Positions 1-36,397 of a DNA stretch of 64,000 nt are shown here, piece by piece (position 1 is the first letter of the stretch; every line of letters begins with the position of its first letter). Made by a program: the position numbers and the translations under genes. This DNA comes from Fimbriimonadaceae bacterium (GTDB lineage: Bacteria > Armatimonadota > Fimbriimonadia > Fimbriimonadales > Fimbriimonadaceae): assembly GCA_040902435.1 (NCBI GenBank), contig JBBDXG010000019.1, positions 42,779 through 106,778 of the forward strand, read 5' to 3'. The notes beneath the pieces are model-generated. The model was not told the origin of the DNA. It saw only the letters and a program-made list of their open reading frames with translations, and made no database searches.

Positions 1-191
1 ACGCTGTCCGGCTGGTGGTCGCCGACGGAGACGATGAGCCGGCGCGGCGTGCCGAGGGACGTGACCTGGCCGTGGCCGAGCCCCTGTTGGTCGAGGCGGT
101 CGGCGATTTCCTGCCCGAGTTGCGTGTAGGCCCGGCGCACGGAGCTGGCAGGAAGCTCCTCGCAGCCGAGTTCGAACAAGAGTTCAGGCAT
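1..191 (-). CDS. glyS: Glycine--tRNA ligase beta subunit, N-terminal fragment (the gene runs off the window start)
   Basis: Not in the ORF track because it leaves the window. The reverse-strand ATG (cat at 189-191) opens MPELLFELGCEELPASSVRRAYTQLGQEIADRLDQQGLGHGQVTSLGTPRRLIV. This matches the conserved GlyS N-terminus (LLxEIGxEELPA). Confidence 0.7.
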   Translation of the reverse strand, partial: MPELLFELGCEELPASSVRRAYTQLGQEIADRLDQQGLGHGQVTSLGTPRRLIVSVGDHQPDS

Positions 192-311
192 GCCGGGGCG
201 ATTGTACCGCTGAGATTTTGAACCTAACCCAGCATCCCGGGGTCCGTTTCAATGTAGAATGCGGGTTGGCCCATATGGACAGGGCCAACACGTTACGTTA
301 CGGAAGGATTT

Positions 312-827
312 ATGATGAAGCGACTGTTTGTTCTAGCGGCCTTTGCCATTTCTGCGCTTGCGAGCGCACAGGGTGGATTTGGTACGCCTGTAAACCTGTC
401 GTTCCGGGTCGGGTTCGTCTATCCCTTGGACGAGTTCACGCGGGACGCAACTGGGAACCTTATCGGAGTGGGTGCGGACTATTTCCTCGAACGGAGCTTG
501 CTCCAGGGAGCCGGGGAAACTACGCTCAGTTTTGACTGGATGGGACGGGGCATGAACGGGGCAAAGGGCAACATGTTCCCGATCATGATCAACCAGCGTT
601 GGTACCGGAGCGGGGACTACCAGAGCGCCAACCGACGGTACTACTTCCTCGGCGCCGGTGTCGCGATCATTGACGTGGTCAACACGAACACCGTCTTCGC
701 CGCTCGCGCGGGAGTCGGCATGGAGCTCGGAGAGCACATCTTCGGCGAAGTGACCTTCGTCTGGAGCGACGCCTCGGCGGGCGCCCGGGCCACCTCGCTG
801 GGTGCATACCTCGGGTATCGGTTCTAG
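312..827 (+). CDS. Small outer-membrane beta-barrel protein (OmpW/porin-like), function unknown
   Basis: GGAAGGA lies upstream of the ATG. The signal peptide is MMKRLFVLAAFAISALASAQG. The sequence shows an alternating beta-strand pattern and ends ...GAYLGYRF, the aromatic terminus typical of BAM-inserted barrels. Confidence 0.6.
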   Translation: MMKRLFVLAAFAISALASAQGGFGTPVNLSFRVGFVYPLDEFTRDATGNLIGVGADYFLERSLLQGAGETTLSFDWMGRGMNGAKGNMFPIMINQRWYRSGDYQSANRRYYFLGAGVAIIDVVNTNTVFAARAGVGMELGEHIFGEVTFVWSDASAGARATSLGAYLGYRF

Positions 828-843
828 AGCAGTCGCTCTATTG

Positions 844-870
844 GGGCGCCGCGGTTTAGCCGCGGCGCCC
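844..870. terminator. Bidirectional GC-rich hairpin between the convergent OMP gene and prcB
   Basis: GGGCGCCGCGG (844-854), loop TTTAG, then CCGCGGCGCCC (860-870) form a perfect 11-bp stem. It sits 17 nt after the OMP stop and directly abuts the prcB stop at 871-873. There is no clear U-tract. Confidence 0.5.
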
Positions 871-1614
871 TCAGCCGTTAAGCACGCGCTCGACGTAGGG
901 CCGGATCTCCGCGTCGCCGAGAACCCGCGAGCCCTCGCGGGTCAGAACGCTGATGGACGGGAGCACCTTTCGGAACCCGCCGGTGGCGGAGTCCAGGTCG
1001 CTCGCGATGTCGAGCATGCGGAGCCCGTCGGTGAGGACCTCGTCGAGGCCCCGCCCGTGCCACTGGCCCTTCGTGCGCGAGAGGAACTCGAAGACGCCGC
1101 GGATTCGTTCGGAACCCGAACCGGCGCACGCGTACTCTGCCCCGCTGAAGCGAGCCCCGGCAAGGTCGAAGAAGTAGATGCCGAACTCTTGGGCGCGCCG
1201 GTCGTAGGTCGCGGCGATCGGTAGGAAGTACCCCGTGCCGCCATCGGCATTGACGATGTTCGAGGCGAGCGCCCGCGATATCTCCATCAGCTTCCCTTCG
1301 GCGGAGATCTCGTGGAGGTTGCGCCGCTCGTAGAACTTGAACGCGTGCTTGAGATAGCGGCATACCTCGATGCTCCGCGCGTACGCGCCGCTGATCGCAA
1401 CGATCGTGCGGCGGTCCAGTGCGACGATCTTCTCCGCCTGCTCGAACATGATGAGGTTGCCCATGGTGGCGCGGCGGTCGGCGAGCATCACCACGCCCTT
1501 GTCGAAGCGCAGGGCCAGAACGGTCGTGCCGTGGACCTCGGACTCGCAAGTGGGCAGTCGCGAGGAGTCGAAGCCGACGAGCTTGGCAAAGTCTGCAGGC
1601 GCAGTGGCGTTCAT
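871..1614 (-). CDS. prcB: Proteasome beta subunit (PrcB-like, with N-terminal propeptide)
   Basis: The 247-aa product contains ...CESEVHG|TTVLALRFDKGVVMLADRRATMGNLIMFEQAEKI. Counting from the TT after the Gly gives Thr1, Asp17 and Lys33, the canonical Ntn-hydrolase proteasome triad, behind a roughly 29-aa propeptide. A GSGS motif follows later (ACAGSGSE). Its ATG overlaps the UBact stop (ATGA at 1611-1614). Confidence 0.85.
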   Translation of the reverse strand: MNATAPADFAKLVGFDSSRLPTCESEVHGTTVLALRFDKGVVMLADRRATMGNLIMFEQAEKIVALDRRTIVAISGAYARSIEVCRYLKHAFKFYERRNLHEISAEGKLMEISRALASNIVNADGGTGYFLPIAATYDRRAQEFGIYFFDLAGARFSGAEYACAGSGSERIRGVFEFLSRTKGQWHGRGLDEVLTDGLRMLDIASDLDSATGGFRKVLPSISVLTREGSRVLGDAEIRPYVERVLNG

Positions 1615-1796
1615 TGGCCCGAGCGCTGCCTGTACTTTTTGGCCTGGTCGGGATCCACGCGCTTCATCCGCTTCAGCAGCTCGTTCGGCGCCGTCGGTTT
1701 CTTGACGTCGGGCTTGCTCGGGCCCTCGTCGTCGCCGAGCTTGCGTTCGGGGTCCGGGGTGAACTGCCTCTGCGTGCGGTCTGCTTGGATCGTCAT
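1611..1796 (-). CDS. UBact / Pup-like prokaryotic ubiquitin-like modifier (C-terminal Gln)
   Basis: The 61-aa product is low-complexity and charged at the N-terminus. It has the conserved tail ...NELLKRMKRVDPDQAKKYRQRSGQ, matching the UBact signature as I recall it (LxRMxxVDPxxAxxYRQRxG[QE]). It sits between the dop-like gene and prcB, with ATGA overlaps at both ends. Confidence 0.8.
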   Translation of the reverse strand: MTIQADRTQRQFTPDPERKLGDDEGPSKPDVKKPTAPNELLKRMKRVDPDQAKKYRQRSGQ

Positions 1797-3283
1797 CTCG
1801 GTGCTTCCAGTTCCATTATGAGTTCTTCTACGGTCCCGCAGTCGGCGAGCGTAGCAGAATACGCCCGTTCGGGGTCGAGCGCGACCGTCTTTTCGCCGTT
1901 AGCGGTCTTGAATGTCAGGGCGCCCCAACTGGCCGAGACGAGGCTCTCCTGGAACTTGGAGACAGCAATGGAGCGGGCCCGGGCGCGGGAGTCTTCGAAC
2001 ACCCTTGTCCGCCTCTTGGCCGTCTCCTCTTCCGGCGGGTCGGGGTCAACGAGCGAGGCGTCGCGGAGGGCCTGGAACACGCCCACGCCTCCGTCGAGCC
2101 GGTGGTACTCCAGGTCGAGCGACTGGAGCGAGCCGTGCCGCCAGCCGACCCCTTCCGACTCGACGTACTGCTCCAGGAGCGACCGCTTGGCGGCCCAGTC
2201 TACTGAGCGCGCGAACCTCTCCGGGTCTGCGAACCGCGCCTCTAGGAGCGAGAGTGCGCCCGTCAGCGCCTTGCGCAGCTCTTGTACGTAGGGATCCGTC
2301 ACGTCCAGGGTACTCGCCAAGAAGGGCTCGACGTACGACTCGATCACGTGCCGGGCGGTCGTCCATGACCGCCCTTCGAGTTCAATGCGCCCCTCACCGT
2401 CCGGCTGTCGGCTGAGCTGCTTGGTTGCGCTGACCGGGTCTGCAAGCGGCCAGACCGGCTGATCCCCCGCTTCGATCAGGTGGATCGCGGCCTTCGTCAG
2501 TGCGAGCTTGATCCGCGTCGCGGTCGAGATCAGATTGGACTCGCCGCAAATCACGTGTAGGCGGACCCACTTCTTCAGATCGGCGTGCGGCTCGTCGCGC
2601 GTGTTGAAGACCGGTCGGCGATAGAGCGTCTCGGCGTTGACCGCCTCGGCGAAGAAGTCGGCACGCTGCGAGATCTGAAAGTCGCACCGTGCTCCCTGCT
2701 CCGACCCGACCTTCCCTGCCCCGGTGAGGACCTGTCGCGCGACGAAGAGCGGCATCAGCCCGGAAATGAGGTTCTCGACCGGCACGGACCTCGGCACGAG
2801 GTAGCTCTCGTGCGTGCCGTACGACGCGCCGTGGAAGTCTGTGTTGTTCTTGTAGACCCGCACTTCGCGACCGACCGACGCCGCGAGGGCGGCGGCCGAG
2901 GAGAGCACGGCGTGGTCGCCTGCGCGGTCGTGCATCACGAGCTCTTCGAGCGACCACGTCTCCGGCGTCGCGTACTCCGGGTGCCCGTGGTCGTTGTAGA
3001 AGCGCGCGCCGTTGCACAGCACGCGGTCGGCGCGCACCTCGTGGACCGGCTCCGGCGCGCGGTCGGCGTCGAACTTGGCGTCTTCTGGGTCGAAGCTCAG
3101 GCGGTCGAGGCGGAAGCCGCGCAGGTCGCTTCGCGGCGATTCAAACCGGTCGTCCCAAAATGGAAAGCACTCGCCCGGAAAGCTCCGGACGAGCGCTCTC
3201 GCGTCGTCAACCTGGTCGCCCGCCCCGCGGCCCTCTACGGAGAAACCATACTCCGTGTCGAGGCCCGCCAGGATCGGCCGCAT
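1793..3283 (-). CDS. dop: Pup-ligase superfamily enzyme, Dop-like (deamidase/depupylase type)
   Basis: The 496-aa product carries GLDTEYGF, NGARFYNDHGHPEYATPE, HDRAGD, YKNNTDFHGASYGTHESYL, FNTRDEPHAD and RLHVICGESN, which are hallmark PafA/Dop blocks. The insert WDDRFESPRSDLRGFRLDR, plus ARQVLTGAGKVG and FQISQRADF, resemble Mycobacterium Dop rather than PafA. Confidence 0.85.
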   Translation of the reverse strand: MRPILAGLDTEYGFSVEGRGAGDQVDDARALVRSFPGECFPFWDDRFESPRSDLRGFRLDRLSFDPEDAKFDADRAPEPVHEVRADRVLCNGARFYNDHGHPEYATPETWSLEELVMHDRAGDHAVLSSAAALAASVGREVRVYKNNTDFHGASYGTHESYLVPRSVPVENLISGLMPLFVARQVLTGAGKVGSEQGARCDFQISQRADFFAEAVNAETLYRRPVFNTRDEPHADLKKWVRLHVICGESNLISTATRIKLALTKAAIHLIEAGDQPVWPLADPVSATKQLSRQPDGEGRIELEGRSWTTARHVIESYVEPFLASTLDVTDPYVQELRKALTGALSLLEARFADPERFARSVDWAAKRSLLEQYVESEGVGWRHGSLQSLDLEYHRLDGGVGVFQALRDASLVDPDPPEEETAKRRTRVFEDSRARARSIAVSKFQESLVSASWGALTFKTANGEKTVALDPERAYSATLADCGTVEELIMELEAPR

Positions 3284-4572
3284 TACCTGCGGAAGACTCT
3301 GAACTGCCCGGTGAGCGGCAGATTGAAGTCAGCGGGCAGGCCGAGCGCCGGGAACGTGAACGTCCCGACCGTGACCTCGCCGTTGAGCATGATGTAGTCG
3401 CTCATGACACCGACGGCCGGGTCAATCTCGGCCAGCGACAGCACGTCTCGGACGCGGGTCAGACGGATCTCGTTCGCGTCAGGGCCGGTGAACCGCGCGG
3501 GGCCGTGCCACAGCGCTGTGATTGTGCCCGTGTTGTCGCGCGCGATGTAGACCGCCGTGAAGTTCTCCTTGTCGTCGCGGCTGTTCGGCAACACGACCAT
3601 CATGTTGCTGCCAATGTTGCTCAGCACCTGCCTGTACGGCCGCCACCGCCCCTGCAACGAGACGATGATGCCCATCGTCGGGTCAATGAGCCGCCAATCG
3701 GGCTCGAAGAGGGTGTAGGTGCCGTCCGCTGGGACGCCGCCAATGACGCTCGGCGAGCTGATCTGGCCCGTGTCAGTGTTGGCCATCGGGTCGAAGTTCG
3801 GGTTCAGGACCTGTAGCGTATCGAGGCCGTCAATCCCAGACGAAATGGCGACTGTGTCGCCGGTGAACAGGATCATGTCGCTCTCGCCTGCGGGCGTCGC
3901 ATTGATCACGATGTTCGGGCGGTCCGCGGCGGCCATGCTGGAGATGTCGAACGCGACATAGTCGCTGAACAGGGCCTCCATCTTGTTCGTGTCGGGATTG
4001 TAGTTCTCGAGCTCGAACAGCGGGCGGTTAAAGACGGGGCCCGTGAACGGGTCGGCGGTCGGAATGATCCCGTCGTTGATGTTGAACTGGAGGACTGTGT
4101 CCCGTCCTCGGGCCAACATGATGTCGGCGTCGAAATTTTGACTGAAGAAGCCGGTCCAGGACACTGTGTTGCCGTTCGTGTCTTCGCCAGACACCTCCTG
4201 GATCTTGAGCGAGAAGATCGAGAATCTCTTGAACGGAACCCCCGTCGGGAGCACGAGCTGGTCGTTGATGGAGTAGAGCGCGAAGCTGTTTAGCGTCGCA
4301 AGGATGACCTTCGTCGTCATGAAGACGTCTTCGTTGCTGTTCCGCACGTCGAGCGCCTGCATCTTCGCCACCATTTCGCCAGGCGCGCGACGGCCCGTGC
4401 CGGTCACGGCCGTCCACTGCATGTCTCCGAAGTCGTTGCCAAGGTTGACGGTCGGTGCGGGTGCCGCCTGGCCCCCACCGGTCGTACCGCTTGTCGTACC
4501 ACCTGGCGTCGTACTACCGCCGCACCCGAAGGCGACGGCCACGGCAAGAAACGCAATCCACCAATTCTTCAA
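3283..4572 (-). CDS. Putative lipoprotein, function unknown, translationally coupled to dop
   Basis: The track ORF is 3283..4647. I prefer the in-frame TTG at 4572, which gives MKNWWIAFLAVAVAFGCGG (signal peptide plus Cys) followed by a Gly/Thr-rich linker. Its TAA stop (3283-3285) shares one nt with the dop ATG (3281-3283), giving TAATG. Confidence 0.5.
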   Translation of the reverse strand: MKNWWIAFLAVAVAFGCGGSTTPGGTTSGTTGGGQAAPAPTVNLGNDFGDMQWTAVTGTGRRAPGEMVAKMQALDVRNSNEDVFMTTKVILATLNSFALYSINDQLVLPTGVPFKRFSIFSLKIQEVSGEDTNGNTVSWTGFFSQNFDADIMLARGRDTVLQFNINDGIIPTADPFTGPVFNRPLFELENYNPDTNKMEALFSDYVAFDISSMAAADRPNIVINATPAGESDMILFTGDTVAISSGIDGLDTLQVLNPNFDPMANTDTGQISSPSVIGGVPADGTYTLFEPDWRLIDPTMGIIVSLQGRWRPYRQVLSNIGSNMMVVLPNSRDDKENFTAVYIARDNTGTITALWHGPARFTGPDANEIRLTRVRDVLSLAEIDPAVGVMSDYIMLNGEVTVGTFTFPALGLPADFNLPLTGQFRVFRR

Positions 4573-4721
4573 TGCTGAATACCTCTCTAGAGCGAACGCC
4601 CGCCGATGATACTTGCTTCTGGTCCAGATAGCAAGAACACTGCTCATCCGCAGCGCGGAGCCCGCGATTTCAGGCCCAAGACTACTCGATTTGACGCCCC
4701 GATTGGCAGCTTTCGTTCAAT

Positions 4722-5606
4722 TCATGCCGCACTTGACCGGCGGCGCTGGGTGAAGTCGAGCGCCGCGGACAGCCTCCCAGACGCGTACTCCAGCACGCCC
4801 GGGCCGTCCGCTGGCCTGATCAGCGCGCCTTCCAGGGTCTGCCTGTCGAGCTCGACCGGCGGGCCGGAGAACCCAAAGTCGCCCCCGACGGCACCCACCG
4901 CCACCGTCGCCGCCTTGAGGACCTTGCCTGCCAGGTCCTGCTCGATCGAGGGCGCGTGGTGGTTGTGGGCGAAGCCGGCCACCTCGTCCGGGAACTTGTA
5001 CAGCCTCAGCGCAGCCTCGCCGACCGCCTGGTGGTCGAACCCAAAAGAGGCCATTTCGAACTCTTGCAGGGGCAGGGCGAGCTTGCTCGAAGCGATCGAG
5101 GAGTAGACCTCGGGCAAAACATAGACCATCGCCACGAGCCCGGCGTCAACGAGCACAGCGGCCCTGAAGGCGTCCTCGGGCTCGATCACATGGCGGCCGG
5201 CAAGCCAGTAGGCCGTCTCGGCCGTCGCCAAGGAGGTCGCCACGATCTTGGAAGACGAGACCCCAGACTTGCCCGCGCTCAGGACGACGAAGTCCGTCCA
5301 GGCCGCGAAGAGGCAGGCTCGGCACACGACCTTGTGCCGGTCGCTGTTCAGGGCCTCTCGGAGCGACTTAAAGTTGGCGGGAGCCTCGTCGCAGAGGCCC
5401 CGCGACACCAGGGCGAGGACCTCGGCCGAGACGTCGTTCCCGGGGGCCATCACCCGATCAATCACGCGGGGGCTGAGCCCGGTGGTCCGCACGAGCGTGG
5501 ACAAGCGGGTGAGCGCCGCATGGACGCGGGGGTCCGATTGCAGCATGTCGGCGACCTTCCGGGGCAGGAAGCCGTGGTCGTCCTCAGGCAAGCGAGAGCC
5601 CGACAT
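4722..5606 (-). CDS. HDOD domain-containing signalling protein
   Basis: ...EFEMASFGFDHQAVGEAALRLYKFPDEVAGFAHNHHAP is a typical HDOD core. The track ORF extends to 5750 and would overlap the yceD start, so I use ATG 5606 (MSGSRLPEDD...) instead. Confidence 0.65.
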   Translation of the reverse strand: MSGSRLPEDDHGFLPRKVADMLQSDPRVHAALTRLSTLVRTTGLSPRVIDRVMAPGNDVSAEVLALVSRGLCDEAPANFKSLREALNSDRHKVVCRACLFAAWTDFVVLSAGKSGVSSSKIVATSLATAETAYWLAGRHVIEPEDAFRAAVLVDAGLVAMVYVLPEVYSSIASSKLALPLQEFEMASFGFDHQAVGEAALRLYKFPDEVAGFAHNHHAPSIEQDLAGKVLKAATVAVGAVGGDFGFSGPPVELDRQTLEGALIRPADGPGVLEYASGRLSAALDFTQRRRSSAA

Positions 5607-5712
5607 CTCTATAGGTTTGTTCCTTGACTCGCGCCTGCGCGCACCTGGCACGAGTGCCGGGGGAACAGGGCATGGGGACATGAGAAGCCAAAGGTAGACT
5701 CGCGCTCCAACC

Positions 5713-6249
5713 ATGAAACGCCATGGCCTGCTCGATCTGAACGAGGCCATTCAGCACCCGGGTAAGAAGCTCCACTTCGAGGTCACGACGAGCCTTCCCG
5801 CCGAGGAGGACCTGGACCTCCTCTCTCCCATCGAAGGGGAGCTCGAGGCGGTCAGCACGGGCAACATCCTGCTCCTCAAGGGGAAGTTCTCGGCCAAGTG
5901 CGTGGTCGAGTGCTCCCGGTGCGGGGAGCCCCTCGACCAAACGGTCGAGTTCCTCATGGCCGACGAGTTCGACGTCGAGGGCGTGCCGTCGGGGTTCGGC
6001 ACCGGGGAGCACGCAAGGGTCGTCGAGGAAGAGGACTACCCGCTCTTCGACAAGAACTCGCTGCAGAAGGACGTGTACGTGCGGCAGGGCCTCTTCGTCA
6101 ACATGCCTGTGCAGCCCCTCTGCGAGTTTGGATGGGACGGCCCGTGCCCGAAGGCGGCGGCGAAGGCGGCGAAAGTCGCACAGGCCGAGGAGCACGGGCA
6201 CCCAGCGATGCAGAAGCTCCGTGACCTTGTGCGCCCGGAGGACGATTGA
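5713..6249 (+). CDS. yceD: YceD/DUF177 family protein (large-subunit rRNA accumulation protein)
   Basis: The 178-aa acidic protein carries the CSRCGEP ... QPLC Cys pairs. It occupies the conserved position directly upstream of plsX-fabH. Confidence 0.75.
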   Translation: MKRHGLLDLNEAIQHPGKKLHFEVTTSLPAEEDLDLLSPIEGELEAVSTGNILLLKGKFSAKCVVECSRCGEPLDQTVEFLMADEFDVEGVPSGFGTGEHARVVEEEDYPLFDKNSLQKDVYVRQGLFVNMPVQPLCEFGWDGPCPKAAAKAAKVAQAEEHGHPAMQKLRDLVRPEDD

Positions 6250-7235
6250 GGATCGCGCTCGACGCCATGGGGGGCGACCACGCCCCGAAGGAGATCGTCG
6301 CCGGGGCGATCGAGGCGGCACCGTTGATAAAGGGCGGGATCGTGCTCGTCGGCGACCCTTCGCAGATCGAGGACTGCACGCACGGTCCAATGCCATCGAA
6401 CATAGACATCCACGCGGCGAGCGAGGTCGTCGGCATGGACGAAAAGCCGATGGAGGCGGTCCGCAAGAAGAAGGACTCCTCTCTTGCAGTGGCGGTCCAG
6501 CTCGTCAAGGACGGGCACGCCTCTGCTCTGGTCTCCGCAGGCAACACCGGCGCGGTGACGGCCGCGACGCTGATCTCGTGGAGGCAGATCAGCGGCGTGC
6601 ACCGTCCCGCCATCGCGAGCCCGTTCCCAAACCGGCACGGGCAGTTCCTGCTCCTGGACGCAGGAGCCTCGCCCGACATAAACCCGGTCCAGCTCCTCGA
6701 GTTCGCCCTGATGGGCCGTGCCTACGCCCTGAAGGTGATGGGAAAGGAGGACCCCAAGGTCCACCTGCTCAACATCGGCGAAGAGCCGGGCAAGGGCAAC
6801 GCCTTCGCCAAGCAGGCGCACGAGCTGTTGGCCGGCCACCCGTGGTTCGCCGGGAACATCGAGGGCAAGGAGATGTTCCACGAGCCTTGCGACGTCGTCG
6901 TCTGCGACGCATTCGTGGGCAACATCGTCCTCAAGACCGCCGAAGGCGTCGGCGAGTTCATCATGAAGGAGATCAGGGACGCGGTGCCCAAGGGGATCGG
7001 CAGGCTCGCCTTCTTGCCGCTCATGAAGGCGCTCGCGCCTATGCGAAAGCGCGTGGACTACGCGGAATACGGCGGATCGCCCCTGCTGGGGCTCAACGGC
7101 TTGTGTATCATCTGCCATGGGAGGAGCAACGCGAAGGCCATCAAGAACGCGGTCCTGACTGCGGCGATGGCCGTCGAGAACGAGCTGGTGCCCGCGATCT
7201 GTGAAGCGATCGGGCACGAACGGAAACTTAACTAG
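6246..7235 (+). CDS. plsX: Phosphate acyltransferase PlsX
   Basis: MRIALDAMGGDHAPKEIVAGAIEA..., SAGNTGA and a C-terminal ...LCIICHGRSNAKAIKNA match PlsX. It overlaps the yceD stop by 4 nt. Confidence 0.9.
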   Translation: MRIALDAMGGDHAPKEIVAGAIEAAPLIKGGIVLVGDPSQIEDCTHGPMPSNIDIHAASEVVGMDEKPMEAVRKKKDSSLAVAVQLVKDGHASALVSAGNTGAVTAATLISWRQISGVHRPAIASPFPNRHGQFLLLDAGASPDINPVQLLEFALMGRAYALKVMGKEDPKVHLLNIGEEPGKGNAFAKQAHELLAGHPWFAGNIEGKEMFHEPCDVVVCDAFVGNIVLKTAEGVGEFIMKEIRDAVPKGIGRLAFLPLMKALAPMRKRVDYAEYGGSPLLGLNGLCIICHGRSNAKAIKNAVLTAAMAVENELVPAICEAIGHERKLN

Positions 7236-8599: not shown

Positions 8600-8688
8600 T
8601 GCGCCTCCTGCCTGTCCCCGTCCCCTGTTACCGGCTACGACGCTCGGAACGGTTCCCGGTTGCAGCAGACCGGGACCCTATCGGGACG

Positions 8689-9024
8689 TCAGGGATGGGC
8701 CGTCGCCTGGTACCAGTGGCCGTCGGGGTCTTGGAACGTCAGGCACTCGTCGTGGTTGGTAACGGCGACGCCGTTCGATTCCAGCCTTTCACGGAACCCA
8801 TCGAGGTCTGAAAGATAGAGGACGGGCGCGACCGCGGTGGCGCGATAGGCGGCTGCGATCGAGCCGGAACCTGGCCTGAGAAGGATCTCGACCACACCGA
8901 GCGCGACCCACTGCGCCAGTCCTTGGTCGGCGACGAACTTCGCGCCGAGCACGTGGACGTACCAGTCGCGCGAAGAGACGGGGTCCTGCACGAAGACTTC
9001 CAGGTGGCCGATCCGTGGTTCCAT
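8689..9024 (-). CDS. VOC (glyoxalase/bleomycin-resistance/dioxygenase) family protein
   Basis: The 111-aa product has IGHLEVFVQDPVSSRDWYVHVLGAKF... and ...FQDPDGHWYQ, a typical single VOC module. Confidence 0.65.
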   Translation of the reverse strand: MEPRIGHLEVFVQDPVSSRDWYVHVLGAKFVADQGLAQWVALGVVEILLRPGSGSIAAAYRATAVAPVLYLSDLDGFRERLESNGVAVTNHDECLTFQDPDGHWYQATAHP

Positions 9025-9075
9025 CCCTTGACTTCCAGGATTGGACGACGTGCGGGCCCCGGTGTTCGAAAGTTT

Positions 9076-10014
9076 CTACGCGGTGACGGGGGCCTCGACC
9101 TGTGCGAAGGTCGCCTTGAGCGACTCGGCGCTCTTGATCAGCCCTTCGCGCTCCGCGTCGTTCACGGCCGGTTCGTAGATGTCCACGACGCCCTTGCGGC
9201 CGACGACCGTCGGGAGCGAGAGCGAGATGTCCTTGATGCCGAGCTTGCCGGTCTGCGCCGCGCTCACGGGGAGGAGCCTTCCGTCGTCGAGCGCGATGCC
9301 CTCGACGACCTCTTTGATCGAGATCCCGACCGCTCGGCCCGCGCCGCCCTTCTGCGCGATGACCGTGGCGCCGGACTTCTTGGTCACGTCGAACAGCGTC
9401 GCCGCCGAAGAGTCGTTCCATCCGGGGATGGACTTCACCGAGACACCGTTGATCGTCGCGCTCGACCAGATCGGCACCATCGAGTCGCCGTGCTCGCCGA
9501 GGATGAGCGCCTTGACGTCGAGCGCGCCGACCTTGAAGTGGTCGGCTATGAGGCTGCGGAACCGCGCGGTGTCGAGGACAGTCCCGAGGCCCATGACCTG
9601 CGACTGTGGCAGTAGCCCGCTCTGCACGGTCATGTGCGTGAGGATGTCCACGGGGTTGCTGACGACGAGGATCGTCGCGCCGCTGGCGAGCTTGACTTTC
9701 TTGAGCTCTTCGAGGATGCCTTTGAACAGCCCGACGTTGCGGTTGATGAGGTCGAGCCGGCTCTCGTCCGGCTTGCGTCGCAGGCCAGCGGTGATGACGA
9801 CGCAGTCGCTGCCGTCGCAGACGCCGTAGTCGCCGCCAGAGAACGTCTGGTTTGCCGTGAGGCTCGCGCCGTGGCGCAGGTCGAGCGCCTCGCCTTGGGC
9901 GAGCTCGGCGTTCACGTCCATTAGCGCGATGTGGTTGACGACCTTGCCGAGCTGGAGCGCGTACGCCGCGTCCGAACCGACGCGCCCGCCTCCGCCGATG
10001 ATGCTGACTTTCAT
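9076..10014 (-). CDS. Lactate/malate dehydrogenase family oxidoreductase
   Basis: MKVSIIGGGGRVGSDAAYAL (Rossmann fold), ITAGLRRKPDESRLDLI and LGEHGDS are present. The Arg in GLRRKP hints at MDH-type specificity. The track ORF start at 10101 adds an implausible leader, so I use ATG 10014. Confidence 0.8.
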   Translation of the reverse strand: MKVSIIGGGGRVGSDAAYALQLGKVVNHIALMDVNAELAQGEALDLRHGASLTANQTFSGGDYGVCDGSDCVVITAGLRRKPDESRLDLINRNVGLFKGILEELKKVKLASGATILVVSNPVDILTHMTVQSGLLPQSQVMGLGTVLDTARFRSLIADHFKVGALDVKALILGEHGDSMVPIWSSATINGVSVKSIPGWNDSSAATLFDVTKKSGATVIAQKGGAGRAVGISIKEVVEGIALDDGRLLPVSAAQTGKLGIKDISLSLPTVVGRKGVVDIYEPAVNDAEREGLIKSAESLKATFAQVEAPVTA

Positions 10015-10118
10015 TGTTGTTAGGAGGAGTTTAGCCGGGAGGGGGAGGAGGAACGAGGCGAAAGGCGGAAGGAGTAGGGAGAAGCGAGAGAACCCCTTCA
10101 CCCGTCACCCGAGGCCCG

Positions 10119-11270
10119 TCATGTGTGGTACTCGGCGTTGATCCGCACGTAGCCATAGCCAAAGTCGCACGTGTAGACGGTCGCGGACTCGCCTGGGCCG
10201 AGCGCGAGGTCAATGACGACCTCGGTGGACTTGAGCGCGGTCGAGGCCCGCTTGGGGTCGTAGGCCGCTGGTGCGCCGTTTTCAAAGAGCAGGTGCTCTT
10301 CGCCTTGTGACACGACCTTCAGCACGGCCGTGTCCGGGTCAAACGCCACGCCAGCACGTCCCGCGGCGGCCAAGACACGGCCCCAGTTTGGGTCGCAGCC
10401 GAACATCGCGGTCTTGACGAGCGGCGAGTTGGCGATCGTCATCGCCACGGCCTTCGGGTCGCTCGTGCCTGTGACCCGGACCTCGATGAGCTTGGTCGCG
10501 CCCTCGCCGTCCCGCGCGATCTGCTTGGCGAGGCTGACGCAGACCTCTCGCATCGCGCCATCGAGCTCCTCGTCGGTCGGCTCGGTTCCGCTCGCGCCGT
10601 TGGCGAGAGCGAGGACCAAGTCGTTGGTCGAGGTGTCGGAGTCCACGGTGAGGCAGTTGAAGCTCGTCGCCACGGCCCTCCGGAGCGCCACGCCCAGCCT
10701 CGCCGGTTCCACGTTCAGGTCCGTCACGATAAACCCGAGCATCGTCGCCATGTCGGGCGCGACCATCCCGCTGCCCTTGCCTACCGCCAGGACCGTCGCT
10801 CCACGAACGTCCGCGGCGGCGCTCTTTTCGACAAGGTCCGTGGTCAAGATGGCCTCCAAGAACGGCTTCGGGTCGTCAGAGAGAGACTTGGCGGCCTCGG
10901 CGATGCCGTGCTCGACCTTGGCCATATCAATGAACTGGCCGATGACTCCGGTCTGAGCGACGGCGACCTCTTTAGTGGTGAGGCCGAGGTGGTGGGCGGC
11001 CAGCTCGGCCATGCGGCCGACGTCCCGGGCGCCTTGTTCGCCAGTGCAGCAGTTGGCGTTGCCGCTGTTCGCGACTATTGCACGGAGGCGTTGAACCTTG
11101 ACCGCCTCCCGCGTGAAGTCCACGCTCGCCGCTCGGACGAGGTTCTGCGTGAAGACCCCTGCCGCCGCCGCTGGGCGGTCGCTGACGATGAGGCCGATGT
11201 CTTTGCGCTTGTTCTTGAGGCCGCAGCGGACGCCGGCGAACTGGAACCCGCTCGGCGCCACTACGGCCAC
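10119..11270 (-). CDS. argJ: Bifunctional ornithine acetyltransferase / N-acetylglutamate synthase
   Basis: ...APSGFQFAGVRCGLKNKRKDIGLI..., ATMLGFIVTD and a C-terminal YVRINAEYHT match ArgJ. The Arg-rich N-terminal extension of the track ORF overlaps argC, so I use GTG 11270. Confidence 0.85.
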   Translation of the reverse strand: MAVVAPSGFQFAGVRCGLKNKRKDIGLIVSDRPAAAAGVFTQNLVRAASVDFTREAVKVQRLRAIVANSGNANCCTGEQGARDVGRMAELAAHHLGLTTKEVAVAQTGVIGQFIDMAKVEHGIAEAAKSLSDDPKPFLEAILTTDLVEKSAAADVRGATVLAVGKGSGMVAPDMATMLGFIVTDLNVEPARLGVALRRAVATSFNCLTVDSDTSTNDLVLALANGASGTEPTDEELDGAMREVCVSLAKQIARDGEGATKLIEVRVTGTSDPKAVAMTIANSPLVKTAMFGCDPNWGRVLAAAGRAGVAFDPDTAVLKVVSQGEEHLLFENGAPAAYDPKRASTALKSTEVVIDLALGPGESATVYTCDFGYGYVRINAEYHT

Positions 11271-12274
11271 ACCCCGGCGGTCTGGAGCCCGGCGGTCTCT
11301 GGAAGCTCGAACATGAGGTTCATGTTCTGCACGGCCTGGCCGGAGGCGCCCTTGACGAGGTTGTCTATCACGCTGACGAGCACGGCGTGGCCGGTGCGCT
11401 CGTCGAAGTCTGCGAAGAGCGCGCACGAGTTCGAGCCGTGGACCTGCTTCGTCGAGGGCGGTTCCGGCAGTATGCGCACGAACGGTTCGCCCTCATACGC
11501 GCTCTGCCAGCATCCGATGACGTCGGCCGCGCCCTTGTTGGCAGCAAGCGGCACGTGGATGGTCGCGCATATCCCGCGTGAGGTGGGCAGCAGGTGCGGA
11601 GTGAACCGAACGACGTCGCCGAGCATCTGCTCGATCTCGGGAGTGTGGCGGTGGCCCGTGGTCTTGTACGGCTTGAACGATCCGTGCAGCTCGCCGAGGA
11701 GGTATTCGGACTCTCCGCGTGAGCGGCCAGCGCCGGAGACGCCGGACTTGGCATCAATGACTGGGGTCCCGCCCAGGACTCGCGCGCGCTGTAGCGGCAT
11801 GAGTGCGAGAAGCGAGGCGGTGACATAGCAGCCGGGGTTGGCGACGACCTGCGCGGACGCGATCGCGCTGCGATCCACGAGCTCCGGCAGGCCATAGACC
11901 GGCCACGGCCTGAACCCTGGGCAGGCGTGTTCGGCGCCGTACCACTTTTGGTAGAGCGAGGCGTCGGCCAAGCGGAAGTCGGCCGAGAGGTCAATGACCT
12001 TCATTCGCTTGGCGAGCGAGGGCACGACCTTCATCGCGACGGTGTTCGACTGGCAGAGGAACGCGACGTCCGCGTCGAGCGACTCGGCGTCGAACCGGGT
12101 CAGTTCCAGTTCGGAGTCGAGCCACGGGCACGCTGCACCGAGTGGCGCGCCCGCCTGCCTTTCGGACGTCGCAACGACGACGCTTGCGAAGGGGTGTTGG
12201 GAGAGCAGGCGAACGGCTTCGGCACCGGTGTATCCGGTGGCGCCGACCACGGCGGCTCGGACCTGCTTTGCCAA
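11261..12274 (-). CDS. argC: N-acetyl-gamma-glutamyl-phosphate reductase
   Basis: The N-terminus VRAAVVGATGYTGAEAVRLL and active-site context ANPGCY match ArgC. It lies directly upstream of argJ. Confidence 0.9.
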   Translation of the reverse strand: MAKQVRAAVVGATGYTGAEAVRLLSQHPFASVVVATSERQAGAPLGAACPWLDSELELTRFDAESLDADVAFLCQSNTVAMKVVPSLAKRMKVIDLSADFRLADASLYQKWYGAEHACPGFRPWPVYGLPELVDRSAIASAQVVANPGCYVTASLLALMPLQRARVLGGTPVIDAKSGVSGAGRSRGESEYLLGELHGSFKPYKTTGHRHTPEIEQMLGDVVRFTPHLLPTSRGICATIHVPLAANKGAADVIGCWQSAYEGEPFVRILPEPPSTKQVHGSNSCALFADFDERTGHAVLVSVIDNLVKGASGQAVQNMNLMFELPETAGLQTAGVWP

Positions 12275-13195: not shown

Positions 13196-13999
13196 TTAGA
13201 CCAGTATATCATCGGTCGGGGCTTGCGCAAGCGTGAACGCGCCAATGCTTCCCACACGCTCGAAATCCAGGCTCGAATACCACTCGGCCAGATCCTCGCC
13301 GCACTGGAGGACGACCGTTCGGTCCGTCCGGGCGGCGGCTGACTGAACCGCCCTGACCAGATCGGACCCAAGGCCCTTGCCCCTGGACTCGGTCGCCACA
13401 CAGAGGTTGAACAGCCCCACGGCCTCCGGCTGTTCGACGAGCATGACGGCGGCGGTGGGATCGCGGCCGTCCCCGACGACCCAGATCGTGTGCGGCGAGG
13501 CGGCGGTCGCTGCGGCGATTCCCTGCCGCGCCTCGCGCCCCATCCGCCAGAAGAACTGCCGCGCCATGAAGTCTCCCACGGCCCGGCGCTCGTCTGGCCC
13601 GGTCACGACGCGCGCGCCGACGTCCTTCGCCTCGACTGGCGCGCTGCTCGCCATGCTCACGAGCGACTGTCGGCACTGGAAGCCGCGCTCTTCCAACCGC
13701 TTGTCAAAGTCGGCGGGCTCGTCGCCCGAGATCGAGAAGACGTAGAACTCAAAGCACTCGGCCGCCTGACCGACGAGGAAGTCAACGGCCGCATCAACGT
13801 CGCCGGGCGCGAGGTCGAAGCCCGCGGCGAAATTGCAGAAGGAGAACACGCCTGGCCCGCGTACGAGCGTAAAGCCCATCGGCCTTCGCACGACCGCGCC
13901 CTCGACAGAACCGACGAGCCCGACGTACGTCGCGAGCGCGTTGCTCCGAACGAGCTGGACCGCGTTGCTCAGAGCACGATGCTCCATAGGACGCCCCAC
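13196..13999 (-). CDS. GNAT family N-acetyltransferase
   Basis: LCVATESRGKGLGSDLVRAVQSAAA is the acetyl-CoA-binding motif A. An alternative start is ATG 13987. The gene overlaps the 3' end of the upstream hydrolase gene. Confidence 0.6.
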   Translation of the reverse strand: MGRPMEHRALSNAVQLVRSNALATYVGLVGSVEGAVVRRPMGFTLVRGPGVFSFCNFAAGFDLAPGDVDAAVDFLVGQAAECFEFYVFSISGDEPADFDKRLEERGFQCRQSLVSMASSAPVEAKDVGARVVTGPDERRAVGDFMARQFFWRMGREARQGIAAATAASPHTIWVVGDGRDPTAAVMLVEQPEAVGLFNLCVATESRGKGLGSDLVRAVQSAAARTDRTVVLQCGEDLAEWYSSLDFERVGSIGAFTLAQAPTDDILV

Positions 14000-15180
14000 G
14001 TCGTCTTCTTGCGCAGTACAGAGACGCCGATCGCAAAGTTCTTGCTAAAGGTGTGGCCGATGAACCCCTGTCCGCCGCGCGGCGTGACCATCACGGCCGC
14101 AAAGGTCTCGCCGTCGGCGCGGAGCCGCCAGACATCGAGCCCCGCCATGACTTGCAGCCCGTTCTCCTGGTTGAACTCCAGGCCCCACCGGATCGTGGGC
14201 GCGTATAGGCTGGCGGGCGCGGCAAAGCCCGGGCCGCGAAACGTCTGCGCGAAAAAGCGCGCCACGGTTCGCACGAGCTTTGCCTGCACGAGCGCGCCGC
14301 CGTAGTGGCCCGTGTCCAGCCAGGTGACCTGCACGTTGCCGAGCGCTGCGATGAGCTTTTCTGCGTCGGCGGGCGGGACCACTGTGTCGAACTTGGCCGC
14401 GATCACGAAGCTCGGGCGGAGGTCGTCCTCTTTGAGGAAGTTGAGCGGTTCGATAGGCGCGAGCGCGCTCCGTAGCCTGTCTTCCGTGTAGCCGTTGCGG
14501 CGGAGCTCCTCCCTCTGCGACACGACCCGCGACGAGTGCCAGAGGATGTGTGCGACGTCCGCCCCGCCGAGGAGGTAGCAGGACGCGGCGAACCGCGGTT
14601 CGACGGCGTACGCCAGCGCGCTCACGAGCGCGCCGAGGCTCGTGCCCGCGACGCCGATCTGGTCGTGCCGAAACTCGCTCCTGGTCTCGATCCAGTCCAC
14701 CGTGCGCCGGACGTCGGCGACGCTCTGGACCATTGTCGCGGTCAGCTTGGCAGGGTCGGGCTCGATGGCGAGCTCGCCGGAGAAGTGGCCTGGCGGCGTG
14801 CGATCTAGGTGGTACGGCAGCGGCACGATGACGCTCGCGACGCCGGCTTCGGCGAGGCGCCGGGCCACGCTGCGCTCGATTCCGACGTCGGAGGCGCCCC
14901 AATAGTGGAGCAGCACGACGACGGGCACGGCGCCGATCGAGTCGGTCGGAAGCACGACGCGGAGCCTTACGGTGTTGTTGTCCGCGTACTGGGTGACGAT
15001 CGAACTCGGGAACGACACCGCGTAGTCCGTAAAGAACTCGCTTCTGCCGACCTCGCGCCACTGTTCGAACGCAATCGGCGGCGGCGGTTGCGTGACGTCA
15101 GCGTCCTGGGCCAAAGTGGGGATGGCCGACGCCAGCAGGAACCCGCATATGAACGCTTTCGTGATCGCCGCCCTGACCAT
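13969..15180 (-). CDS. Secreted alpha/beta hydrolase (dienelactone-hydrolase-like) with a C-terminal extension
   Basis: I use the start MVRAAITKAFICGFLLASAIPTLAQD (signal peptide) at 15180; the track ORF starts at 15273. The nucleophile elbow is GVAGTSLGA, and VVVLLHYWG lies upstream of it. Confidence 0.6.
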   Translation of the reverse strand: MVRAAITKAFICGFLLASAIPTLAQDADVTQPPPPIAFEQWREVGRSEFFTDYAVSFPSSIVTQYADNNTVRLRVVLPTDSIGAVPVVVLLHYWGASDVGIERSVARRLAEAGVASVIVPLPYHLDRTPPGHFSGELAIEPDPAKLTATMVQSVADVRRTVDWIETRSEFRHDQIGVAGTSLGALVSALAYAVEPRFAASCYLLGGADVAHILWHSSRVVSQREELRRNGYTEDRLRSALAPIEPLNFLKEDDLRPSFVIAAKFDTVVPPADAEKLIAALGNVQVTWLDTGHYGGALVQAKLVRTVARFFAQTFRGPGFAAPASLYAPTIRWGLEFNQENGLQVMAGLDVWRLRADGETFAAVMVTPRGGQGFIGHTFSKNFAIGVSVLRKKTTWGVLWSIVL

Positions 15181-17140
15181 GGCCCAGTCCGCACCCAGTT
15201 TAGACAACCGCCTCGACGACGCGCTCGGCGTGGCGGGACTCTCGACCAAGACGGCCAGGTACGACGCAGGCATCCTCTCTTTGTACGGCCAGGGCGACTT
15301 CGCGTCGCTCTATTTCAAGACTCTTCACGATAACCCGTGGCGCGCCCCGTTCGCGATGGAGATGAACCGCAGGCTCCTGGCGGCTACGAAGTCGGACCCG
15401 GCAGGCACGGTCTCGGTGCTCTCCCGCCTGAGCGGCGATGGGAGCCGACGGTCGCTGCTGGCCAACCCGATCGCGCGGGCCGAGCAGCTCGCGGGCGAGA
15501 GCGGCGCGCTGGTCAAGGCCCTCCAAACGATGAAGGCCGAAGGAATCCTGGTCGGCAACGTGCCCGCGACGGTGGGCGCCCCCGGCCCGGTGCAGACGGC
15601 GGCCGCGCTGGTCTTGTACTGTGCGATGGACCTGGTGCGCTATCGCCGGGCGGCATTTGCGCGCTTGAGCGACCTGGAAGAGGCGTACAGCCGCGAGACG
15701 TCGGTGCAACCGACCGACGACGACCCGCAGACCCACCAGCAACTCGTCGAGTTCTACCGTTTGGTTGACCTGAACTACCTCTATGCCGCCGGCCAGGACC
15801 TCGCCGCGGCGGTGGCTAAAGCGCAGGAGACCGTGCAGTCGGTCCCCGAGGGCGAGAAGTTCGGCGTGCAGTTCGAGACGATCTGGGGCCGCATCGTCCT
15901 CAGCGGAGGGGGCGACTCCCGGCACGACGGGCAGAACGTGCTCTTGCTCATTGACACAGGGGGAAACGACACGTACATCAACGCACCGACGAACGACTCG
16001 GTGAGCAACTGGCTGAGCGTGGTCATTGACACGCGCGGGGACGACAAGTACGTCTCCGACGACTACCTGGTCGAGAACGGGATCACGACCTGGGACAAGC
16101 GCAAGGAAGGGCGCGCAAAGCCCGGCCCGTGCAGCGCGACGTTCGGGTTCAGCTACCTGGTGGACAGCCGCGGCGACGACCTCTACCGCTCGCACTCCTC
16201 TGCGTTCGGATCGGCGTCGTTCGGTGTCGCGATGCTCGTGGACAAGCAGGGCAACGACTCGTACGACGCGTACTGCGACTCGTTGGGGTTTGGCAAGTTT
16301 GGGATCGGGATCCTCGAGGACTGGGAGGGCAGGGACCGGTACCTTGGGTTCACCCAGGTGCAGGGGGTCGGCCTGACCGGCGGGATCGGCGCGCTGATAG
16401 ACAGGGCGGGCGACGACACATACATAGCCAACGACGGCGTGCTCGACTTCCCGTCGCCGCAGAGCGACCGGCACAACGTCAGCATGGCCCAGGGCGCGGG
16501 ATATGGATCGCGTAGCGACTACCTGACGGGCCACAGCCTGAGCGGCGGCATCGGGCTGCTCTACGACCAAGAAGGGAACGACTCCTACTCTTGCGGCGTG
16601 TTCGGCCAGGGGACCGGCTATTGGGAGGGCGTCGGAATCCTATGGGACGAGAAGGGCGACGACAAGTACCACGGGATCTGGTACGTGCAGGGCGCGGCGG
16701 CTCACTATGCGATCGGGTACTTCGAAGACCTCGACGGCACGGACACCTACCGCGCGGACATGAACATGGCGCAGGGCGCAGGGCACGATTTCAGCACGGG
16801 CTACATGCTCGACCGCGCCGGCAACGACTCTTACACGGCGCCGAACCTCTCGCTCGGTGCGGGGAACGCCAACGGAATCGGCGTGTTCATCGAGTTCTCC
16901 GGCAACGACACTTATGTCTCGAACGGGCTCACTCTCGGCAAGGCCAGCGAGTCAACCAAAGGGTCAATGCGCGAGCGCGCGCTGTGCCTCGGGTTCTTCA
17001 TGGACCTGGGCGGCAGGGACGAGTACCCAGGCGCGGCGAGCTGGGCGAAGGACGGTGCGCGGGTCGCCAACTGGACCGACAGGGGCCCGTACCCGGCGGA
17101 AAGCCAGCTCGGGGTCTTCTGGGACGGGGAGGCCCGGTAG
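15149..17140 (+). CDS. Repeat (solenoid-like) protein with 12 x DxxG[ND]DxY motifs, function unknown
   Basis: The track ORF is 15092..17140 and the true start is uncertain (15092, 15149 or 15179). The motifs are IDTGGNDTY, IDTRGDDKY, VDSRGDDLY, VDKQGNDSY, EDWEGRDRY, IDRAGDDTY, YDQEGNDSY, WDEKGDDKY, EDLDGTDTY, LDRAGNDSY, EFSGNDTY and MDLGGRDEY, spaced roughly 25-35 aa apart. Confidence 0.6.
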   Translation: MNAFVIAALTMAQSAPSLDNRLDDALGVAGLSTKTARYDAGILSLYGQGDFASLYFKTLHDNPWRAPFAMEMNRRLLAATKSDPAGTVSVLSRLSGDGSRRSLLANPIARAEQLAGESGALVKALQTMKAEGILVGNVPATVGAPGPVQTAAALVLYCAMDLVRYRRAAFARLSDLEEAYSRETSVQPTDDDPQTHQQLVEFYRLVDLNYLYAAGQDLAAAVAKAQETVQSVPEGEKFGVQFETIWGRIVLSGGGDSRHDGQNVLLLIDTGGNDTYINAPTNDSVSNWLSVVIDTRGDDKYVSDDYLVENGITTWDKRKEGRAKPGPCSATFGFSYLVDSRGDDLYRSHSSAFGSASFGVAMLVDKQGNDSYDAYCDSLGFGKFGIGILEDWEGRDRYLGFTQVQGVGLTGGIGALIDRAGDDTYIANDGVLDFPSPQSDRHNVSMAQGAGYGSRSDYLTGHSLSGGIGLLYDQEGNDSYSCGVFGQGTGYWEGVGILWDEKGDDKYHGIWYVQGAAAHYAIGYFEDLDGTDTYRADMNMAQGAGHDFSTGYMLDRAGNDSYTAPNLSLGAGNANGIGVFIEFSGNDTYVSNGLTLGKASESTKGSMRERALCLGFFMDLGGRDEYPGAASWAKDGARVANWTDRGPYPAESQLGVFWDGEAR

Positions 17141-17152
17141 ACTCGGAGCCCG

Positions 17153-17845
17153 ATGATCCCCCTCCGCGATAACCTCGAATCGCGCGAGAAGCCGATCGTC
17201 ACGTGGACGCTGATCGGGCTCAACCTCTTTCTCTTCCTTTGGGACAGAGAGTGGTCGTGGAGCGGTTATAGCGTCGCGTTCGCCGACATGGCGATGCGCC
17301 CGTCCGAGGTCGTCGCCGCGATGACCGGCCAGGGCGACCCGATGGAGCTGGGAAAGCTCTTCACGAGCATGTTCCTGCACGGCTCGGCGTGGCACTTGAT
17401 CGGAAACATGCTGTACCTGCTCGCCTTTGGGGGCAACGTGGAGACAGCTCTCGGCGGGCTACGGTTCGCGCTCTACTACCTCTTTTGGGGGCTCTTCGCG
17501 AGCGCGGCGCACATGTTCGTCAGCCCGGCTTCGGACATCCCGACCCTGGGGGCGTCTGGTGCGATCGGCGGTGTGCTCGGGTGCTATTTTCTGCTGTTCC
17601 CGGGCAACCGTGTGCAAGTGCTGATCCCGCCGCTGATTTTCTGGGTCTTCGCGTTCCCCGCGTGGATCCTGCTCGGTCTTTGGTTCGTATTCCAGGTTCT
17701 CGTGCCACAGTCTGGTGTGGCGAACTGGGCGCACGCTGGCGGGTTCCTGGCCGGGATGGTGACGGTGCTCGTCATGGGCGGTCGTGAGAAAGTCTTGAAG
17801 GACTCGGTGTTCGAGAAGGTGGAACTGGAGGAGGACTATGTCTAA
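17153..17845 (+). CDS. Rhomboid family intramembrane serine protease
   Basis: The product has multiple TM helices. HGSAWHLIGNMLYL, the catalytic GASGAIGGVLG and HAGGFLAG are all present. Confidence 0.85.
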   Translation: MIPLRDNLESREKPIVTWTLIGLNLFLFLWDREWSWSGYSVAFADMAMRPSEVVAAMTGQGDPMELGKLFTSMFLHGSAWHLIGNMLYLLAFGGNVETALGGLRFALYYLFWGLFASAAHMFVSPASDIPTLGASGAIGGVLGCYFLLFPGNRVQVLIPPLIFWVFAFPAWILLGLWFVFQVLVPQSGVANWAHAGGFLAGMVTVLVMGGREKVLKDSVFEKVELEEDYV

Positions 17846-19730: not shown

Positions 19731-19731
19731 G

Positions 19732-23359: not shown

Positions 23360-23402
23360 CGTAGGGCTGGGTTGGACGTTGATTTTGGAGCAGGAGGATT
23401 CA

Positions 23403-24728: not shown

Positions 24729-24743
24729 AGGTAGTACCGAACA

Positions 24744-36080: not shown

Positions 36081-36167
36081 TGCTCTGTACTCCGGCGGCG
36101 AGACTGCCGCCTACCGGGTTTGACGAAGGTTTTGAGCCGAAAGTCGAGATTGTTCGGCACAAAATCG

Positions 36168-36303: not shown

Positions 36304-36397
36304 CGCACGGGAGCGCGCCGCTCCATGGGTGGCCACGCTGGCAGAACGCCAACCGACGACAAGCAGGCGGCTACATGACGACCACTAGGCGACGCCC

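Follow-up and report, generated by a model that had tools for sequence, protein, structure and literature searches.

The closest described counterparts of the gene cluster discussed here are the UBact locus of Gram-negative phyla and the Pup system of mycobacteria and other actinobacteria. The canonical UBact locus, which Lehmann et al. are said to have described in 2017, reportedly runs mpa-dop-ubact-prcB-prcA-pafA, and we know of no experimental data for any UBact system. The Pup system is made up of Mpa, Dop, Pup, PrcB, PrcA and PafA. Pup/PafA modules with none of the three proteasome genes, whose ligases carry transmembrane insertions, have been reported from Plesiocystis and Rhodopirellula (Iyer et al. 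2008, PMC2588565), and only sporadic Dop/PafA homologs have been recorded in the Armatimonadetes (Hecht et al., PMC7947786). The subject of the present analysis is a locus at the left end of a 64,000-nucleotide stretch of DNA (contig JBBDXG010000019.1, positions 42,779 to 106,778; hereafter, the window) from a soil or water bacterium of the Fimbriimonadaceae (Armatimonadota). The locus encodes a lipoprotein, a Dop-type enzyme of the Pup-ligase family, a UBact modifier and a predicted proteasome beta subunit. As a first-pass annotation of this DNA had claimed, genes for the alpha subunit, the Mpa ATPase and PafA are absent beside it, and its order departs from the canonical one: scans of the window found none of the three, and prcB is followed by a hairpin, an outer-membrane-protein (OMP) gene and glyS.

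On balance, we consider that this locus, with its lipoprotein gene, dop, ubact and prcB, is probably the functional core operon of a UBact-proteasome system, and that the remaining genes of the system are dispersed over the Fimbriimonadaceae genome. On present evidence, we are dealing with a known system in a variant gene order that has become fixed in one bacterial order, and not with a new machine.

Genes of the locus

The operon genes all lie on the minus strand, in the order lipoprotein gene, dop-type gene, UBact, proteasome beta, and the locus lies 870 nt from the left edge of the window. The features are as follows.

4606..4634, minus strand: sigma-70-like promoter match (TTGCTA-17-TATCAT), upstream of the probable TTG start at 4572; a consensus match only
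3283..4647, minus strand: lipoprotein gene p454 (454-residue open reading frame), fold without known relative; its stop codon overlaps the dop ATG by 1 nt
1793..3283, minus strand: predicted Dop-type Pup-ligase-family gene, 496 residues (PF03136, Dop structures, TIGR03688 as best model)
1611..1796, minus strand: UBact modifier, 61 residues, C-terminus ...DPDQAKKYRQRSGQ (NF033388 and PF20513, above cutoffs)
871..1614, minus strand: predicted 20S proteasome beta subunit (PrcB-like), 247 residues, 29-residue propeptide, Thr1 = residue 30 (Pfam, NCBIfam, fold)
844..870, no strand: GC-rich hairpin GGGCGCCGCGG-CTAAA-CCGCGGCGCCC, directly 3' of the beta stop codon, no U-run
312..827, plus strand: small outer-membrane beta-barrel-like gene, 171 residues, convergent; boundary marker outside the system (weak OMP_b-brl match, below cutoff)
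18..191, minus strand: 5' end of glyS (glycyl-tRNA synthetase beta), continuing past the left edge of the window; boundary marker

The genes are chained by overlapping stop and start codons, the junctions being, in order, TAATG between p454 and dop (a 1-base overlap), ATGA between dop and UBact, and ATGA between UBact and beta. In other words, the UBact gene overlaps both dop and prcB, and the earlier claim of three genes chained by ATGA overlaps holds in both overlaps and in all coordinates.

By sequence and predicted fold, the 247-residue protein is a PrcB-type 20S beta subunit. It matches the Pfam Proteasome family (PF00227) with 83.2 bits (cutoff 22.4, E 2.5e-23), and its best NCBIfam model is TIGR03690, with 108.1 bits, which is below the cutoff of 191.9, as are the 149.7 bits of the beta subunit from a canonical UBact locus. 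The HslV models give it 23.5-28.7 bits, compared with cutoffs of 137-158. What is more, its best phmmer matches are the PrcB subunits of M. tuberculosis and Rhodococcus, and the top Foldseek matches of its AlphaFold2 model (pLDDT 81.9) all come from the same two sources, with TM values of 0.76-0.86 (0.79-0.86 for the best of them), HslV, BPH and Anbu being found neither among the 60 phmmer matches listed nor among the top 50 Foldseek matches. Grouping with PrcB rather than with HslV or Anbu had been named beforehand as a check on the assignment, and phmmer and Foldseek agree in placing the protein with PrcB. The active-site features that had been claimed for it, a propeptide and intact Thr1, Asp17 and Lys33, are all present. 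Namely, the 29-residue propeptide ends in HG/TT (residues 28-31), and Gly-1, Thr1, Asp17 (D46), Lys33 (K62), GSGS at 165-168 and DSATGG at 208-213 are invariant or at least 90% conserved in 58 orthologs, with a ratio of nonsynonymous to synonymous substitution rates (dN/dS) of 0.06-0.17 for the beta gene. Proteins of this type are labeled at NCBI as 'proteasome subunit alpha' or 'hypothetical protein' (P0016, P0031, P0057, P0098; P and L numbers are our own handles).

The 496-residue enzyme had been described as a Dop-like member of the Pup-ligase superfamily, and this description is borne out. It matches Pup_ligase (PF03136) with 407 bits (E 1.4e-121), and Dop structures outscore PafA, with 263 as compared with 162 bits. 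The best NCBIfam model is that for Dop (TIGR03688), which is built on actinobacterial sequences and gives 334.6 bits, below its cutoff of 492.3; the PafA model (TIGR03686) gives 258.5 bits, also below cutoff. In particular, the Dop-loop region aligns to residues 39-80 of Acidothermus Dop, whereas PafA alignments begin only past the loop. The GhExE ATP motif of Dop is present, the DH.HPE around the catalytic Asp lacks the PafA insertion, and E10, D94, H95 and E99 are invariant in 74 orthologs. Hecht et al. (PMC7947786) list positions by which Dop and PafA can be told apart, and here the PafA-type residues are missing: the window enzyme has V84, no VGS insertion, P103, F208 and S452. We therefore assign it, from its sequence, to the Dop-type (deamidase/depupylase-like) members of the family.

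One stretch of this enzyme departs from canonical Dop. The alpha-loop residues E210, V211, E212, G214, L215, T218, L219 and K220 are replaced by A, E, A, N, A, L, Y and R, and a PafA-type Glu occupies position 211 in 69 of the 74 Dop orthologs. Taken together with the finding that engineered Dop variants perform both reactions (PMC7947786), this could mean that a single bifunctional enzyme also ligates UBact and that no PafA is needed. We regard this as very improbable. Namely, the Dops of canonical UBact loci, which do encode PafA, have the same N93, G96 and TL-Y alpha-loop residues, and their position 211 is variable (V, D or E); the departures are therefore a trait of the UBact lineage and no sign of a changed function. 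Moreover, the Dop loop and the Dop-type DH.HPE are kept, and three assemblies contain a PafA ortholog along with the cluster, as detailed below. An ancestral-like bifunctional Dop was dropped as a candidate because of these shared departures and the PafA co-occurrence.

For the 61-residue protein, a score against the UBact models had likewise been set as a check, and it lies above the curated cutoffs of both: 81.7 bits for Pfam PF20513 (cutoff 27.8, E 3.1e-23) and 77.9 bits for NCBIfam NF033388 (cutoff 35). The gene stands next to a Pup-ligase-family gene, and its product has the G-[EQ] ending; the first-pass annotation had this ending as ...RQRSGE, which is incorrect, since the protein ends in ...KKYRQRSGQ, with a Gln. 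The 14 C-terminal residues, ...DPDQAKKYRQRSG[Q/E], are almost invariant in 76 loci, the last residue being Q in 52 and E in 24, and the dN/dS of the gene is 0-0.13. As in Pup, this alternation between Q and E implies that UBact is active with a C-terminal Glu, and that deamidation and conjugation take place. Going by homology to the mycobacterial Pup system, one can propose that UBact would be made with a C-terminal Gln, that the Dop-type enzyme would deamidate it to Glu and later strip UBact from its targets, and that a PafA-type ligase from an unlinked locus would phosphorylate the gamma-carboxylate and join UBact to target lysines. The tagged proteins would then be degraded by a 20S-type particle, the catalytic ring of which would consist of the Thr1 beta subunit encoded in the window.

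The claim that dop is preceded by a lipoprotein gene is likewise confirmed. The open reading frame of p454 opens at the ATG at 4647, and its probable start is the TTG at 4572, which gives 429 residues, the length called for the counterpart in a near-identical relative contig. The window protein has the lipobox ..VAFGC, and the 61 orthologs found directly upstream of dop nearly all have a V[IV]GC lipobox with a Gly-rich linker after it. Profile searches of Pfam, NCBIfam and PDB gave no match, and dN/dS is 0.17. It should be noted that this fast-evolving family of exported lipoproteins (e.g. L002:8712-9998) is found immediately before dop throughout Fimbriimonadales, in many cases with translational coupling, and shares its operon with genes for cytosolic tagging. 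In L091, from another Armatimonadota lineage, the gene upstream of dop (13831-14928, minus strand) encodes not a lipoprotein but a polytopic membrane protein of 365 residues ending in ...SSAGE; this Gly-Glu end resembles that of a Pup-type modifier, which may be a coincidence.

As for the boundaries of the operon, the sigma-70-like match at 4606..4634 is the sole promoter-like match in positions 1-6300 (0.4 expected from shuffles) and is a possible operon promoter. Next to the lipoprotein gene on its upstream side, and in the same orientation, is an HDOD-domain gene (4722-5750, minus strand), a neighbor that the locus has only in its nearest relatives (L001-L003, L010 and a few more). At the other end, the strong hairpin and the convergent OMP gene that had been noted after prcB are both in place, at 844-870 and 312-827. 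A 56-nt segment around the hairpin folds at -35.6 kcal/mol, and the hairpin is probably a bidirectional terminator between the convergent genes; a simple terminator scan missed it because it has no T-run. The convergent OMP gene is kept at the same position in many related loci. Finally, the L081 contig, which was reached via a 98%-identical beta subunit (P0001) and encodes 98%-identical proteins, has the same order followed by glyS, and therefore nothing proteasomal is to be expected just beyond the edge of the window.

Conservation across Fimbriimonadales

How widespread is this arrangement? A scan of one genome per species with the window Dop sequence returned 80 loci, all from Armatimonadota and almost all labeled Fimbriimonadales or Fimbriimonadaceae, the closest Dop being 73% identical. 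About 70 of the 80 have fabH<-plsX<-yceD and then lipoprotein gene, dop, UBact and beta, often followed by the convergent OMP gene. In other words, dop-UBact-beta without adjacent alpha, Mpa or PafA is fixed across the order Fimbriimonadales. What is more, the four window genes have dN/dS values of 0.06-0.22, that is, all four operon genes are under purifying selection. The local absence of the partner genes is all that speaks for the locus being a decaying, non-functional remnant of a complete one, an explanation that is effectively refuted by these dN/dS values, by the catalytic residues conserved in the 58 beta and 74 Dop orthologs, and by overlaps and gene order that have persisted across an entire order. 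Contigs with a Fimbriimonadaceae-type locus are also filed under Synechococcus, Kamptonema/Geitlerinema and Planctomycetes (L019; P0055/P0323), which probably reflects mis-binning or contamination.

Partial losses do occur in the clade. L047:9995-11728 has dop and UBact without beta, and L058 and L060 (around 8600-11400) have the lipoprotein gene and dop without UBact or beta. A basal group among the Fimbriimonadales Dop-like genes, encoding 461-463 residues (L074:7161-11386, L075:9995-11380, L079:5701-7077), has neither UBact nor beta nearby; a hydantoinase gene precedes the Dop-like gene in L075 and L079, and in L074 the order is PafA-like, two small proteins (198 and 215 residues), Dop-like. 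The two small proteins were considered as proteasome subunits or UBact-like modifiers, and a sequence-family comparison showed them to be neither.

Would it then be possible that tagging is uncoupled from bulk degradation, with UBact acting mainly as a regulatory modification and the linked beta subunit having a narrower role or being dispensable? The loci lacking beta (L047), lacking UBact and beta (L058, L060), or having a Dop-like gene with no UBact nearby (L074, L075, L079) point in this direction, as do the Pup systems known from Plesiocystis and Rhodopirellula (PMC2588565), which have no proteasome genes. That said, in the great majority of loci beta is retained, coupled to UBact, catalytically intact and under strongly purifying selection, and we hold such an uncoupling to be improbable.

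Unlinked partners and the beta-only alternative

Of the partners missing from the locus, PafA is found at unlinked sites in related genomes. Genes of a PafA-like family are numerous in Armatimonadota, Fimbriimonas ginsengisoli among them, and mostly stand alone. The standalone proteins carry F84, the VGS insertion, A103, H208 and D452, and have motifs and 53-59% of their residues in common with the PafA encoded in complete UBact loci; judged from this resemblance, they are orthologs of canonical-locus PafA. In three assemblies, JBBQWO01 (L013, L090), JBBQZV01 (L024, L093) and JBBQUZ01 (L015, L094), a PafA-like gene and a window-type cluster lie on different contigs, the assemblies being metagenome bins in which mis-binning is possible. 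In the MBS17 accession batch, the spacing of accession numbers may hint that a PafA-like protein (1720217) and two beta subunits (1715647 and 1724023) come from different bins. A comparison of the best 120 matches listed each for beta, UBact and PafA-like found no shared contig and was uninformative. In another Armatimonadota lineage (L091, L092, L095, L096), the PafA-like gene is adjacent and convergent to beta.

As regards the alpha subunit, a metagenome scan with the beta alignment led to close relatives with complete loci. Namely, L114, L121, L150, L158 and L160 have the full order Mpa-dop-UBact-beta-alpha-PafA, with beta subunits about 50-53% identical to that of the window, and further relatives have dop-UBact-beta-alpha; NCBIfam models on the canonical loci give 455 bits for pup_AAA, 76-96 bits for 20S_bact_alpha and 321 bits for PafA. 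A beta-family hidden Markov model (HMM) was tried as an alpha detector and dropped, true alphas scoring only 5-6 bits with it, and was replaced by an alpha HMM built from the canonical relatives. With the latter, alpha adjoins beta in 29 loci, which form one beta clade. A different placement is seen in L055 (JAIOPU010000250.1), where the order is alpha, dop, UBact, beta, the alpha stop codon overlaps the dop start, and an independently assembled Logan contig agrees. This lineage (L055/L175:1-2852, L176:3-2604) is represented by a Lake Fargette Armatimonadota metagenome-assembled genome and by independent Logan and ENA contigs. In it, Dop and beta clearly belong to the Fimbriimonadales type, with 56-64% identity, and alpha shares 45-53% of its residues with canonical alphas, a divergence comparable to that of beta; alpha has therefore been kept under constraint within the clade, and has moved. 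To our knowledge, prcA directly upstream of dop is not described elsewhere.

Several results weigh against a scattered but complete system. Within the window, Pfam scans of the open reading frames revealed no proteasome-fold or AAA protein, the lineage-specific alpha and Mpa HMMs had no match, and no PafA is encoded in the 64 kb; by tblastn there is no dop or beta paralog in the 64 kb either. Within the clade, the alpha HMM found an adjacent alpha in 0 of 91 Fimbriimonadales-clade loci in which beta is followed by 1.5 kb or more of sequence, and the Mpa HMM matched only four canonical metagenome loci, with none in or near the Fimbriimonadales-clade loci; in 2.4 Mb of sequence flanking the loci of the clade and its relatives, there is no Mpa apart from the canonical loci. 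To these one should add the possible mis-binning in the three PafA assemblies. We can only infer that pafA, prcA and the unfoldase gene lie elsewhere in the window's own genome, and while for alpha this is an extrapolation from a single lineage, for Mpa it is an extrapolation from nothing. With no Mpa-type gene in the Fimbriimonadales-clade sequence covered, the unfoldase is therefore the weakest link of the scattered-system interpretation.

The same results bear on the second of two readings that the first-pass annotation had offered. Of these, 'parts encoded elsewhere' has gained ground through the unlinked PafA in three assemblies and the alpha of the L055 lineage, while the 'reduced beta-only protease' is now a minority reading. 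According to the latter, most Fimbriimonadaceae, including the source of the window, have no prcA or mpa, and beta would form a homo-oligomeric, HslV/BPH-like, UBact-guided protease with another unfoldase or none. The lack of an adjacent alpha in all 91 informative loci and of Mpa in the 2.4 Mb of flanks outside canonical loci are what one would expect in this case. Moreover, L091-type loci keep PafA beside beta and yet have no alpha or Mpa within 10 kb, and the window beta scores lower on the bacterial beta equivalog (108 bits) than does the canonical-locus beta (150 bits). Still, we regard a beta-only particle as unlikely. Within the clade itself, one lineage keeps an intact alpha translationally coupled to dop, and PafA shows that functional partners of the system do reside at unlinked sites. 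As far as is known, the PrcB-type beta subunits of actinobacteria and archaea need alpha in order to assemble, and in known 20S structures the H1 and H2 helices of beta face the alpha ring. In the beta subunits studied here, the surface formed by these helices is not relaxed: the H1-H2 region is conserved to a similar degree in the alpha-unlinked and the alpha-linked clades, and for the most part with identical residues, as would be expected if an alpha ring were still the partner, although some other conserved ring contact would fit too. If alpha and Mpa were truly absent, this would be a new protease architecture, which is the less likely outcome on the evidence; a beta-only particle, if real, would form a natural link between HslV-like proteases and those of the 20S type, and one that works together with a ubiquitin-like tag.

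The wider window and comparison with known systems

Elsewhere in the window, two further regions deserve mention. The first is a gene at 33936-35747 (minus strand), which encodes a 603-residue protein combining MmeI-like helicase-spacer and methyltransferase segments with a Schlafen AlbA_2 domain. Beside it, positions 36000-38000 form the lowest-GC stretch of the window (0.57) and encode a helix-turn-helix-cupin regulator; this may be a small defense or mobile island. The second is a run of large same-strand open reading frames at 15092-29711 (plus strand), in which proteins of 682, 872 and 916 residues without Pfam match stand among rhomboid, DUF5693 and CarboxypepD_reg-domain proteins, and which resembles an uncharacterized envelope gene cluster.

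Returning to the scattered UBact-proteasome system that we favor, its significance would be that in one Armatimonadota order a UBact system extends beyond a single operon: only dop, ubact and prcB have remained side by side, whereas pafA lies elsewhere, as does prcA in at least one lineage. Annotation pipelines and readers expecting an operon will call such a system incomplete. This also bears on the choice of an experimental model and on the question of which partners are indispensable to a bacterial beta subunit. In the literature searched, which did not include the original UBact report (BBRC 2017), there is no description of a beta gene kept with dop and UBact while alpha, ATPase and ligase are detached, and no paper on an Armatimonadota proteasome locus was found.

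Compared with the canonical UBact locus, the window has the same protein families and the same dop-ubact-prcB order and coupling, and its Dop and beta, like the PafA of sister genomes, are 40-60% identical to the canonical ones, with the diagnostic motifs in common. It differs in lacking prcA after prcB, mpa before dop and pafA in the vicinity, and in having a lipoprotein gene coupled upstream of dop. With the mycobacterial and actinobacterial Pup system, the locus shares a Gln-ended modifier that implies deamidation by Dop, the Dop loop, and a beta subunit that has Thr1 and a propeptide, its proteins being nearest to M. tuberculosis and Rhodococcus PrcB in sequence and fold and to Acidothermus Dop in sequence. 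Here, however, the modifier is UBact and not Pup, Dop and beta fall below the NCBIfam cutoffs built on actinobacteria, and the genes appear to be dispersed. The Plesiocystis and Rhodopirellula modules are similar in being non-canonical neighborhoods, too, in which a Pup-like modifier and a Pup-ligase-family enzyme stand beside a gene for an envelope or membrane protein, but the window keeps beta, and its enzyme is predicted to be of the soluble Dop type. Finally, the homo-oligomeric rings of HslV, BPH and Anbu are what would also be required of the window beta if no alpha exists; unlike these proteins, it groups with the 20S beta subunits, both by sequence and by predicted fold.

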